Shown piece after piece: positions 30,507 through 32,716 of a stretch of DNA of 64,000 bases. The notes under the pieces are model-generated. The model made no database searches, was not told the origin of the DNA, and saw only the letters and a list, made by a program, of their open reading frames with translations. Origin of the DNA: a virus; the IMG/VR virus record IMGVR_UViG_3300045988_122188. One strand, written 5' to 3'. The first letter of the stretch is position 1. The number at the start of each line of letters is the position of its first letter. The position numbers and the translations under genes are program-made.

Positions 30507-31241
30507 TTATTTGCGAGCATTTTTCATCTGATCTAATATGGCTTTAGCTTCTTGCTGTCGCTCTTCTTGCTCCATATGATAATCCAATGTTTCTGCACTA
30601 GATTCATACGCAATAGCAACGCCTTTGGCTTGTTCGCTAAGTTTCTTTGCTCCTTCTCGAACCTCTTCCAAACCTTCCTGAGCAGCATTTGAACTATTGT
30701 ATTGATCTAAATTTTTCTGCAATTCTGCAATCTGCTGATCTGCCTCCATCTGAAGAACCACAGTATCTTTTTCGCTTTTTAGCTTAATGAGCTGATCATA
30801 CGCTTGGTTTTTAATTTCTTCTTGTTTATCTTTTGTGGATTGCAACTCTGGGATTTTCTTTTCGTACACTGATTTCTGTGCCTTTAGCGTGGCTAATTTT
30901 TGAGCATAATACATTGCTTTTTTATCATCATGATTATCAATGTACTGGTTGATCATTGCCTCGGTTTTAGAAATTTCTTCTTTTGTTTCTTTGAGATCAT
31001 CTTCCATTGTTGCCAATCTACCAGCTACCGTTGTGTATGTACCCATTGTTTTCTTATAAAAGTCCTGTTTCTCTTTAATTGCAGTATTATATCTGGCTCT
31101 TGCTCCCTCTGGAGTCATTGCATTTTCTTTGATCTTTTCTGCAACTGTTCCAGATGCCACATTTTTAATCTGCTTTCCGTTTTTAGTAAATTGTAAATAT
31201 GCGATAATTGCTACAATTACACAAATAATAATAATTGCCAT
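30507..31241 (-). CDS. PspA/IM30-like coiled-coil protein with an N-terminal TM anchor
   Basis: TM helix MAIIIICVIVAIIAYL, then a long coiled coil with PspA-like stretches (KKAMYYAQKLATLKAQ, KSEKDTVVLQMEADQQIAELQ). Family assignment is tentative. Confidence 0.4.
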   Translation of the reverse strand: MAIIIICVIVAIIAYLQFTKNGKQIKNVASGTVAEKIKENAMTPEGARARYNTAIKEKQDFYKKTMGTYTTVAGRLATMEDDLKETKEEISKTEAMINQYIDNHDDKKAMYYAQKLATLKAQKSVYEKKIPELQSTKDKQEEIKNQAYDQLIKLKSEKDTVVLQMEADQQIAELQKNLDQYNSSNAAQEGLEEVREGAKKLSEQAKGVAIAYESSAETLDYHMEQEERQQEAKAILDQMKNARK

Positions 31242-31255
31242 AATAATTTCTCCTA

Positions 31256-32716
31256 TTAGAACTCACGGTAATCTGCTGGCTCTGGTGTTCCAAGATTTTC
31301 ATTATCTGTAAACTCTACTTCTTTATCTTCAGAAACAAAATCTTTCAACATCTTTGCAAGATCAACACCTGTAGATCCTTTAACACCATCTGATACCTGA
31401 TTCACAACATTCATAATATCTTTTGTTAATTTTGTTGTATTGCCTTCTCCATACATAGTGATACTTCCTACGTTTCCTAATGGCGCAGCTGCATTTTTAA
31501 CTGCTTCTGGGAACATCTGGCACATCATTTCGACGATAGAAGCTTTACCCATCTGCTTCATAGCTTCGGCTTTCTTTTCGATCGCTTCTGCTTCAGCAAT
31601 ACCTTTTGCTTTAATCGCCTCAGCTTCTGCTACACCTTTCGCACGGATACCTTCAGCTTCCTGTTCCATAGCATATTTTGTAGATTCAGCTTCTTTTTCT
31701 TTAGCATATTTATTAGCTTCTGACTCTTTCTGTCTCTTATATAAATCTGCATCTGCTTTCTGCTGAGAGGCATATCTTTCAGCCTCTGCCTGTTTCTTGA
31801 TCTGTGCATCTAATGTCTGCTCTGTTACCTCAACGTCTTTACGTTTCAGTTCAATTTCTTTTTCCTGACGCATAATATTAGCATCCGCAGTTACAATTTC
31901 AATTTCTTTACGTGATTTTTCTTCCTGAATCTTGTATGCTGCATCTGCCTCAGCCTTCTTTGCTTTTGAAATCTTCTCAAGTTCAGATTTTTTAATTTCC
32001 AGATTGTTATTCTTTTCTGCGATCGCTGTTTCTGACTCAACCCTTGCATCATTCGCTTCTTTTTCAGCCATTGCTTTTGCTTTTTCAATATCTCTTTCGC
32101 TTTCAGCTCTGGAAATTGCAGCCTTCTTCTGAATTTTAACAACATTATCTACACCAAGATTTTCAATAACATCATTATCATCCATAAAATTCTGCACATT
32201 AAAACTGATGATATCTAATCCCATTGCAGCAAGGTCTGGCTTCGCATTTTCTGTAACAAGCTGTGCAAATTTCTGACGATCAGAAACCATTTCTTCGAGG
32301 CTCATCTTTCCAACGATCTCTCGCATATTACCTTCAAGGACTTCTCTTGCGACCTGTCCAATATCGCCTACTGGCTTATTTAAGAAGTTTTCTGCTGCAA
32401 GTTTTAATCTTTCTGGATTACTGCTAACCTTTACATTGACCGCTGCATCTACATTGATATTGATATAATCTGCTGTAGGCACAGAACTTGATGTCTTAAC
32501 ATCAATTGGAATTAACTCAAGATTAAGATGATCTGCTTTTTCAAAGAATGGGATTTTTAACCCTGCCTTACCAATTAATGTCTTAGGTGTCTTTCTAAGT
32601 CCAGAAATAATATAAGCTTTATCTGGACTTGCTTTGACATAACCGCTACCGATAATAGCTCCTACGCCACCTACCGCAATAACCACTGGTACCACTGTTC
32701 CAATTACTTCAATCAT
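31256..32716 (-). CDS. SPFH/Band-7 flotillin-like protein
   Basis: N-terminal TM helix, an SPFH domain and a long Ala/Glu/Lys-rich coiled coil (EAEAIKAKGIAEAEAIEKKAEAMKQ). 486 aa, similar in size to FloT/YuaG. Confidence 0.8.
   Translation of the reverse strand: MIEVIGTVVPVVIAVGGVGAIIGSGYVKASPDKAYIISGLRKTPKTLIGKAGLKIPFFEKADHLNLELIPIDVKTSSSVPTADYININVDAAVNVKVSSNPERLKLAAENFLNKPVGDIGQVAREVLEGNMREIVGKMSLEEMVSDRQKFAQLVTENAKPDLAAMGLDIISFNVQNFMDDNDVIENLGVDNVVKIQKKAAISRAESERDIEKAKAMAEKEANDARVESETAIAEKNNNLEIKKSELEKISKAKKAEADAAYKIQEEKSRKEIEIVTADANIMRQEKEIELKRKDVEVTEQTLDAQIKKQAEAERYASQQKADADLYKRQKESEANKYAKEKEAESTKYAMEQEAEGIRAKGVAEAEAIKAKGIAEAEAIEKKAEAMKQMGKASIVEMMCQMFPEAVKNAAAPLGNVGSITMYGEGNTTKLTKDIMNVVNQVSDGVKGSTGVDLAKMLKDFVSEDKEVEFTDNENLGTPEPADYREF

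Follow-up and report, generated by a model that had tools for sequence, protein, structure and literature searches.

Analysis of a viral DNA stretch of 64,000 nt (IMG/VR record IMGVR_UViG_3300045988_122188; "the window" below means this whole stretch) identified two adjacent minus-strand genes, encoding a flotillin of the FloT type and a transmembrane (TM)-anchored protein related to PspA/IM30. Comparison of the pair with related phage loci indicated several characteristic features: (i) the PspA-like gene is the constant element of the locus, (ii) the flotillin is a lineage-specific substitute for the usual upstream partners of this gene, and (iii) the flotillin is of host origin. We propose that the pair forms a two-gene accessory membrane-maintenance module. 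The identities of both proteins are held with high confidence; the proposal taken as a whole has about an even chance of being right, and its functional part, coupled action of the two proteins in membrane maintenance, is put at even at best.

The two genes and their products

The ORF list places both open reading frames (ORFs) on the minus strand at the positions that an earlier note, made from the DNA letters, had given for them. The pair and its spacers comprise the following features:

31256..32716, minus strand: FloT-type flotillin gene, 486 aa (ORF list, Pfam, NCBIfam)
30507..31241, minus strand: gene for the TM-anchored PspA/IM30-like protein (ESCRT-III superfamily), 244 aa (ORF list, Pfam, phrog_33389, AlphaFold2 model)
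31242..31255, minus strand: 14-nt spacer from the flotillin stop codon to the PspA-like start codon, with AGGAGA (sequence)
32717..32781, minus strand: 65-nt spacer 5' of the flotillin gene, with the ribosome-binding site AAAGGAGA (sequence)
31252..32710, strand not assigned: replaceable cassette, the flotillin segment (blastn of locus L012 against locus L041, and gene content)

A ribosome-binding site thus stands ahead of each gene, and the 14-nt spacer with its AGGAGA motif suggests that the two are probably co-transcribed. Promoter and terminator consensus scans around the pair gave matches no better than shuffled controls.

The larger product had been described as an SPFH/band-7 protein with an AEAEAIKAK coiled coil, and Pfam, NCBIfam and the translation agree with this description. 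It matches the Band_7/SPFH family (PF01145) over residues 50-207 (E 7.8e-24; 85.1 bits against a cut-off of 23.6) and, marginally, the Flot family (PF15975) over residues 355-427 (27.7 bits against a cut-off of 27). The NCBIfam FloT model NF058507 covers residues 47-461 with 298.5 bits, which is under the equivalog cut-off of 700 bits and makes the protein a member of the FloT family, not an equivalog of Bacillus subtilis FloT. The translation also contains an N-terminal hydrophobic anchor at about residues 4-24 (Kyte-Doolittle 19-residue mean 2.48 at 4-22), a long Glu/Ala/Lys-rich coiled coil with visible AEAEAI repeats, and an acidic tail. The architecture and the FloT match are those expected from the FloT (YuaG)-NfeD (YuaF) operon of Bacillota; unlike that operon, the window's flotillin is phage-encoded, scores below the equivalog level and has no NfeD/YuaF-type partner, as neither neighbour of its gene qualifies.

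The smaller product had been noted as a TM-anchored coiled-coil protein with PspA-like segments. A TM helix is indeed found at residues 1-19 (Kyte-Doolittle 19-residue mean 2.67), followed by a lysine-rich linker and a conserved TPEGA motif at 43-47; the kinship with PspA is supported at the level of the family, the window's protein itself remaining sub-threshold. Three lines of evidence agree on it, namely the homologues, the family profile compared with Vipp1/PspA structures, and the AlphaFold2 model, and their agreement indicates that the 244-aa protein is, by sequence and predicted fold, a divergent PspA/IM30/Vipp1 member of the ESCRT-III superfamily.

Among the homologues, the Pfam family PspA_IM30 (PF04012) is matched by 17 of 18 close relatives at E<=0.1 (best 7.8e-11) and by 51 of 80 diverse family members at E<=0.01 (best 6.6e-13). 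It is the sole recurrent Pfam family, any other being matched by at most four of the 80. The sub-threshold match of the window's own protein spans nearly its full length, with residues 52-242 aligned to profile positions 29-217 of 220. When the family profile A3 was compared with PDB, the four best entries were Vipp1/PspA (E 1.8e-6 to 2.6e-6; residues 46-205 on 27-187), and generic coiled coils of the tropomyosin type came next, only at about 4e-4; a smaller family profile found Vipp1/PspA at E 0.0016. The alignment to Vipp1 runs in register for about 160 residues from the start of helix alpha-1 (residue 22-27 of Vipp1). Two other searches were less telling: phmmer with the 244-aa protein alone found no match in PDB, and hhalign of profile A3 against a single E. 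coli PspA sequence gave 27% probability over 22 columns, a result that the single-sequence template makes uninformative.

The AlphaFold2 model has a mean predicted local distance difference test score (pLDDT) of 76, exceeding 90 across the central hairpin. Helices are predicted at 44-102 and 106-182, forming a hairpin of 59 and 77 residues, and further at 185-205 and 216-243; the basic linker is disordered. The ten best Foldseek matches of this model in PDB are all Vipp1/PspA, with probability 1.00 and TM-scores of 0.46-0.64; among the matched entries are the rings, rods and tubes that Vipp1 and PspA form with lipid. A fold search among viral predicted structures (BFVD) was unspecific for the all-helical model. 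The protein belongs to PHROG 33389 (E 1e-21), whose function is unannotated. When 1.84 billion cluster representatives were searched exhaustively with the profile, just 308 clusters of the family were collected at E<=1e-3, and nearly all full-length members are 240-260 aa long.

The N-terminal amphipathic helix alpha-0 is absent from the window's protein, residues 1-19 being a fully hydrophobic TM helix instead; the alignment thus indicates that a peripheral amphipathic helix has been replaced by an integral one. By the positive-inside rule, the lysine-rich stretch that follows the TM helix puts the body of the protein in the cytoplasm. A spanin- or holin-like TM coiled-coil protein was considered and rejected, since by the same rule the coiled coil would be cytoplasmic, and since PspA is what the family matches.

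Homologues of both genes are numerous, and their ratios of nonsynonymous to synonymous substitution rates (dN/dS 0.05-0.11 for the flotillin and 0.10-0.13 for the PspA-like gene, hence 0.05-0.13 overall) point to purifying selection, so they are more than chance ORFs.

Exchange of the genes upstream of the PspA-like gene

The neighbourhood of the PspA-like gene was surveyed in 79 IMG/VR loci encoding a relative of its product (from the best 80 of 238 hits), by tblastn of these loci with proteins of the window and of its sister cassette. The loci fall into three groups by the identity of the PspA-like protein to that of the window:

Group A, 94-100% identical, 31 loci: flotillin upstream in 30, lost in L024
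Group B, 71-72% identical, 8 loci (L040-L046, L048): P-type ATPase, vWA-TerF/copine-like protein (vWA, von Willebrand factor A) and TerD; without flotillin
Group C, 38-42% identical, 40 loci: TerD directly upstream in 40 of 40, ATPase in 39 of 40

TerD is therefore directly upstream of the PspA-like gene in all 48 IMG/VR loci examined outside the flotillin group. Five further look-ups gave the same arrangement. In homologues 35-61% identical, TerD again comes first and the PspA-like gene second, the two are 0-12 nt apart, and the number of TerD paralogues is one to three. The two settings are mutually exclusive: no contig of group B or C is among those that carry a flotillin relative, and a TerD gene is absent from the window. 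In this survey, the flotillin-PspA-like pair is not a unit kept across phages: it is confined to one species-level phage cluster, and elsewhere the partners are TerD, usually the ATPase and often the vWA protein.

The exchange is sharply bounded. At the flanks, group B phages are close to the window at the protein level: the Cro/C1-type helix-turn-helix protein (HTH_26) is 92-100% identical, a 135-aa protein 95-100%, and PM0253 78-96% (PM0253 is a 110-aa gene directly upstream of the flotillin gene on the same strand, without a Pfam match, and is followed by genes of nicotinamide adenine dinucleotide (NAD) metabolism). Comparison of L012 with L041 by blastn gave 94% identity up to 5 nt inside the cassette, none within it, 78% across the PspA-like gene (window 30456..31251) and 98% beyond. 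At the flotillin site, group B carries a replacement of about 4.1 kb that encodes the P-type ATPase, the vWA-TerF/copine-like protein and TerD. In the simplest history, TerD (with the ATPase and vWA genes) followed by the PspA-like gene would be the old and widespread order, and a host flotillin would have replaced the Ter/ATPase genes in one lineage; the TerD/ATPase setting thus appears ancestral for the window's PspA-like gene.

One PspA-like allele found behind a flotillin (P0003, in L005) is a recombinant, in which residues 1-128 are like those of group A, whereas over residues 129-244 it shares 98-100% identity with the group B allele. Because of this allele, any determinants specific for the upstream partner would be located in the N-terminal half of the protein, which is also the most diverged (62-70% identity).

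Two side observations concern the Ter-type cassette. An in-frame TerD::PspA-like fusion (P0023; L132 6001..7080), lacking the TM helix and the first part of alpha-1, was found on three contigs of 50-200 kb, where a P-type ATPase, a 76-aa gene and TerD precede it; it may be a Rosetta-stone fusion or a deletion product and is given little weight. In two lineages (L009 12474..13751 and L133 11550..12458), IS605 OrfB/TnpB-like genes (Cas12f1-like_TNB) are located a few kb away from the Ter/PspA-like cassette and may contribute to its mobility.

The flotillin has a separate origin. With flotillin family proteins from Longibaculum muris and Coprobacillus cateniformis it shares 70-71% identity, and its closest non-phage relatives, including those of Lachnospiraceae, are 66-71% identical overall. 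These identities indicate that the gene is host-derived and was captured fairly recently from a host-like bacterium. In Longibaculum-like contigs (L127-L129, 3746..6458), the flotillin follows genes for a PadR regulator, a HAAS-domain protein and an 80-aa protein, and no PspA adjoins it. HAAS-PadR pairs are linked to Psp envelope-stress systems (PMC11237479), which suggests that the donor flotillin gene was part of a PadR-HAAS envelope-stress unit.

A second group of phage contigs carries a flotillin 63-66% identical to that of the window and about 72% identical to bacterial ones, and the flotillin of MT835492 is a third version, about 40% identical. Since identity to bacterial flotillins (about 71-72%) exceeds that between the phage groups (64-65%, and about 40% for MT835492), the sequences indicate that host flotillins were captured by related gut phages at least two or three separate times. 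A further flotillin, 52% identical to that of the window and preceded by a 144-aa helical gene, is present in an 11-kb record deposited as 'Bacteriophage sp.' (L004, MT836322.1); judged by its ORFs (Lgt-like, YbaK-like, GreA-like and a large glycoside hydrolase beside the flotillin), this record looks bacterial, not viral.

The Ter-type arrangement has a counterpart in described phages. In the Jug gut phages, terD and an adjoining pspA-like gene are transcribed as an operon with high read depth, and Ca2+ P-type ATPases are also encoded (PMC12880540). The sister phages of the window are alike in gene context, with TerD directly upstream and a P-type ATPase. The window differs in having a flotillin in place of TerD, the ATPase and the vWA protein, and the word flotillin has no occurrence in PMC12880540.

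Proposed function and competing explanations

In the mechanism that we infer, both proteins would be inserted in the cytoplasmic membrane of the host, most of each protein being on the cytoplasmic side according to the positive-inside rule. The flotillin would form an SPFH scaffold or microdomain, and the PspA-like protein would polymerise on the inner leaflet in the ESCRT-III manner, sealing or stabilising the membrane and its ion and proton barrier, so that the membrane would stay energised until the end of latency. The flotillin may position or concentrate the PspA-like polymer, as YdjI/SamI does for PspA in B. subtilis. The Ca2+-type P-type ATPase, copine-like vWA protein and TerD that hold the flotillin position in other phages suggest a common theme, the response to membrane or ion-barrier damage, and the flotillin pair would be one variant of a broader phage cassette for membrane and ion stress. 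Candidate benefits to the phage are (i) an energised cell through a long latent period, (ii) resistance to superinfection or lysis from without, (iii) countering of membrane-targeting abortive infection, and (iv) protection from bile or antimicrobial peptides.

Bacteria provide the closest precedent. In B. subtilis, YdjI is needed to localise PspA to the membrane (PMC8581546), and this SPFH protein, also named SamI, links PspA to the membrane within the pspA-ydjGHI (samGHI) module (bioRxiv 10.64898/2026.02.06.704340). The window is similar in that an ESCRT-III-type PspA homologue and an SPFH protein are encoded together, and the proposed logic, an SPFH scaffold aiding membrane localisation of PspA, is the same. 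Several features are different: (i) no YdjG/YdjH adaptor genes are present in the window between PM0253 and the tRNA-like gene beyond the pair, (ii) the SPFH protein of the window is of the FloT type with its own membrane anchor, whereas YdjI is cytosolic, (iii) the PspA-like protein of the window has its own TM helix, and (iv) the module is phage-encoded and combines two genes of different evolutionary origin. Bacterial PspA operons with Band-7/flotillin proteins have also been described (Ravi et al. 2024, PMC11237479); these contain a CesT/Tir-PspA dyad, YqiJ/YuaF (NfeD-type) and AAA+ genes, none of which is found in the window.

Three features of the locus speak for coupling: the 14-nt spacing suggests a shared transcript, bacteria repeatedly and independently link PspA with SPFH/flotillin proteins, and the flotillin stands exactly at the site of the tightly linked partners that usually precede the PspA-like gene (TerD at gaps of 0-12 nt). 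A number of observations nevertheless weigh against the proposed module. The PF04012 match of the window's own PspA-like protein has E 0.014 and 15.5 bits, against a cut-off of 33.9, and the Foldseek E-values are just 2e-3 to 3e-2, with all-helical folds known to match promiscuously. In L024, the segment corresponding to window 31257..32782 (the flotillin gene and its 5' spacer) is cleanly deleted and the PspA-like gene is kept. The 30 concordant loci with the pair are near-identical genomes and count as roughly one evolutionary observation. The flotillin stands alone in six related phage contigs, with no PspA-like gene within 4 kb, and in MT835492, with none within 4-6 kb. Finally, the pair is in a hot-spot region, where the adjacency of its two genes could be incidental.

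Much of this is accommodated by the main rival, according to which the two are independent accessory genes ('morons') and neighbours by chance, the flotillin having entered a recombination hot spot where a PspA-like gene was already present; each would act on the membrane alone, or one would do little. The genomes that carry one gene of the two, the two or three separate captures of flotillins, the presence or absence of the NAD island at the same site and the donor-like bacterial locus without an adjoining PspA all fit this explanation. We regard it as somewhat unlikely, given the spacing, the bacterial linkage and the position of the flotillin.

Counter-defence or superinfection exclusion, the kind of role favoured in the earlier note, would mean protection against pore-forming or lipid-degrading abortive infection effectors, or blocking of entry or of lysis from without by competing phages. 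The NAD salvage island adjoins the pair in a variable accessory region, and the sister cassette has TerD; the bacterial ter operon has been implicated in colicin resistance and in the inhibition of phages (PMC8123226), and part of the literature cited in PMC11237479 has PspA-type proteins countering membrane and proton leakage. Such a role is a special case of membrane maintenance and not a distinct mechanism. PADLOC gave no significant match, with coiled-coil noise only for the PspA-like protein (JetC, E 0.021; Cas2_IIIa, E 0.045) and nothing for the flotillin. As a specific function, it is considered distinctly improbable.

Membrane remodelling for the phage's own use, in vesicles associated with replication or assembly or in the timing of holin-triggered lysis, is highly improbable. 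The PspA/Vipp1/ESCRT-III superfamily remodels membranes, lipid-bound rings, rods and tubes are among the Foldseek-matched entries, and the module is among early/middle-type genes on the replication strand; however, no lysis or structural genes adjoin the pair, and near-identical phages can lack the module or have it exchanged, which would be unusual for a core role in morphogenesis. That the 244-aa protein is a generic TM-anchored coiled coil with a spurious likeness to PspA is scarcely credible: its sub-threshold Pfam match, the phmmer and hhalign results and the unspecific BFVD search would allow it, but PspA_IM30 is the only Pfam family matched by a majority (51 of 80 members against at most four), the profile sets Vipp1/PspA (E about 2e-6) apart from generic coiled coils (about 4e-4), 160 residues align in register beginning at the start of alpha-1, and the lengths and order of the model helices fit the PspA hairpin architecture.

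A bolder version of the membrane-maintenance proposal can be drawn by analogy, and we consider it quite unlikely. TerD binds Ca2+, and eukaryotic ESCRT-III membrane repair is triggered by Ca2+/ALG-2. The PspA-like protein could be the effector of a phage membrane-repair system resembling the eukaryotic one, in which, for most of these phages, Ca2+ influx would act as the trigger through TerD, the copine-like vWA protein and the Ca2+-exporting ATPase, and this trigger would be replaced in the window's lineage by the flotillin scaffold. If so, the flotillin and the TerD cassette would be equivalent recruiters of an ESCRT-III-type polymer, and a definite biochemical role would be assigned to the TerD family, which has long lacked an explanation.

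Metabolic genes and counter-defence genes are familiar from phages; phage genes that manage the host membrane are much less studied. Bacterial PspA-SPFH links, TM-bearing PspA homologues and gut-phage pspA-like genes beside terD are already known. In the literature searched, no description was found of a phage-encoded flotillin followed by a TM-PspA gene, of a site-specific alternation of flotillin with ATPase/vWA/TerD ahead of a conserved PspA-like gene, or of repeated capture of host flotillins by these phages. Near-identical phages with a flotillin, with a Ca2+-ATPase/vWA/TerD cassette, or with nothing ahead of the PspA-like gene provide a natural experiment. With them it can be tested whether PspA-type polymers are recruited or regulated by SPFH scaffolds and by TerD proteins, what TerD does, and whether an infecting large phage takes an active part in keeping the membrane intact or the ions in balance.

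The phage, its relatives and the surrounding genes

The window encodes a DNA polymerase, a primase, a DnaB-like helicase, and RecJ-like and ExoV-like proteins; these genes mark it as the replication region of a large phage that has a replisome of its own. It is AT-rich (about 34% GC), with negative GC skew throughout and nearly all genes on the minus strand. The closest cultured phages by polymerase are Brevibacillus phage Sundance (32%) and [Clostridium] innocuum phage Amboise (29%), and megablast of window 29000..37000 against deposited phages gave no match. The same locus, at 94-100% protein identity, is present on many IMG/VR viral contigs of 140-166 kb. The source is a large gut phage of about 150-165 kb whose host is probably among Bacillota, and the likeness of the flotillin to Erysipelotrichales-like flotillins gives a host lead for these abundant, uncultured phages. 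Bacterial contamination of the window was considered and rejected, as the same arrangement repeats on these many viral contigs.

The phage looks virulent. Lysogenic conversion, which the earlier note had offered as one possible role, is unlikely in view of the phage's own replisome and of the bacterial genome scans, which found no relative of the PspA-like protein; no integrase search of the window was made. These two scans covered 185,579 species-representative bacterial genomes with peptide patterns that limit their sensitivity, and they would miss bacterial members such as those in PMC11237479. Of the two refuting signs that the note had named, a lack of PspA homology and a position of the pair in a horizontally acquired bacterial fragment with host-like codon usage, neither was found: relative synonymous codon usage (RSCU) of the two genes correlates with r 0.85 and 0.81, against a phage background of 0.81 +/- 0.10, a test that discriminates recent transfer poorly, the likely host being similarly AT-rich.

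The view that such proteins are rare in phages stands for deposited records, of which 3 of 50,697 match the PspA-like protein and 10 of 50,697 match the flotillin, and a few deposited phages carry annotated PspA/IM30 and flotillin proteins. It applies less to metagenomic gut phages, since relatives of the PspA-like protein are encoded on 238 IMG/VR stretches. In the data searched, the clade of the window's protein was found almost only on phage contigs, unlike the bacterial PspA/Snf7 homologues of PMC11237479. Distant homologues (25-27% identity) are encoded by Bacillus phage G (gp247; L001) and MT835556.1 (L003). The gene order in both (gp243-gp250 in phage G) is an ABC-transporter permease and ATPase, a gene of about 200 aa, the PspA-like gene and large OmpA/MotB-domain proteins. 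This context matches that of bacterial TM-bearing PspA/Snf7 homologues, some of which are in operons with ABC-transporter and PBPB-OmpA genes (PMC11237479). Integration of a prophage into floA, as described in PMC13245101, is a different matter from a phage-encoded flotillin.

The following genes flank the pair in the window:

33117..36818, minus strand: NAD island, with NadE, NAMPT, a phosphoribosyltransferase-like (phosphoribosyl pyrophosphate (PRPP)-synthetase-like) gene and an isochorismatase/nicotinamidase (Pfam)
30239..30376, minus strand: tRNA-like gene, 3' of the pair; context, not part of the module (Rfam, 46.4 bits)
29932..30198, plus strand: Cro/C1-type HTH_26 gene (Pfam; ORF list)

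Rfam and Pfam thus place the tRNA-like gene and the NAD island at the two flanks of the pair, as had been noted earlier. Only about half of the group A phages, although near-identical, have the NAD island, and in those without it a DUF8224 gene is nearer to PM0253; this variable presence indicates that the region from DUF8224 to HTH_26 is a hot spot of independently varying accessory cassettes. The HTH_26 gene is among the very few plus-strand genes of the window, convergent with the pair and the tRNA-like gene. It is kept beside the cassette in both flotillin-type and Ter-type phages, and its product is a possible local regulator.

The tRNA-like gene matches the full Rfam tRNA model and is 138 nt long, including a 67-nt AT-rich insertion in the anticodon loop. 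It is missed by ARAGORN with default settings, and the intron option calls an odd anticodon, ATA ('Tyr'). The element, including the insertion, is 96-99% conserved in 73 related loci of flotillin-type and Ter-type phages.

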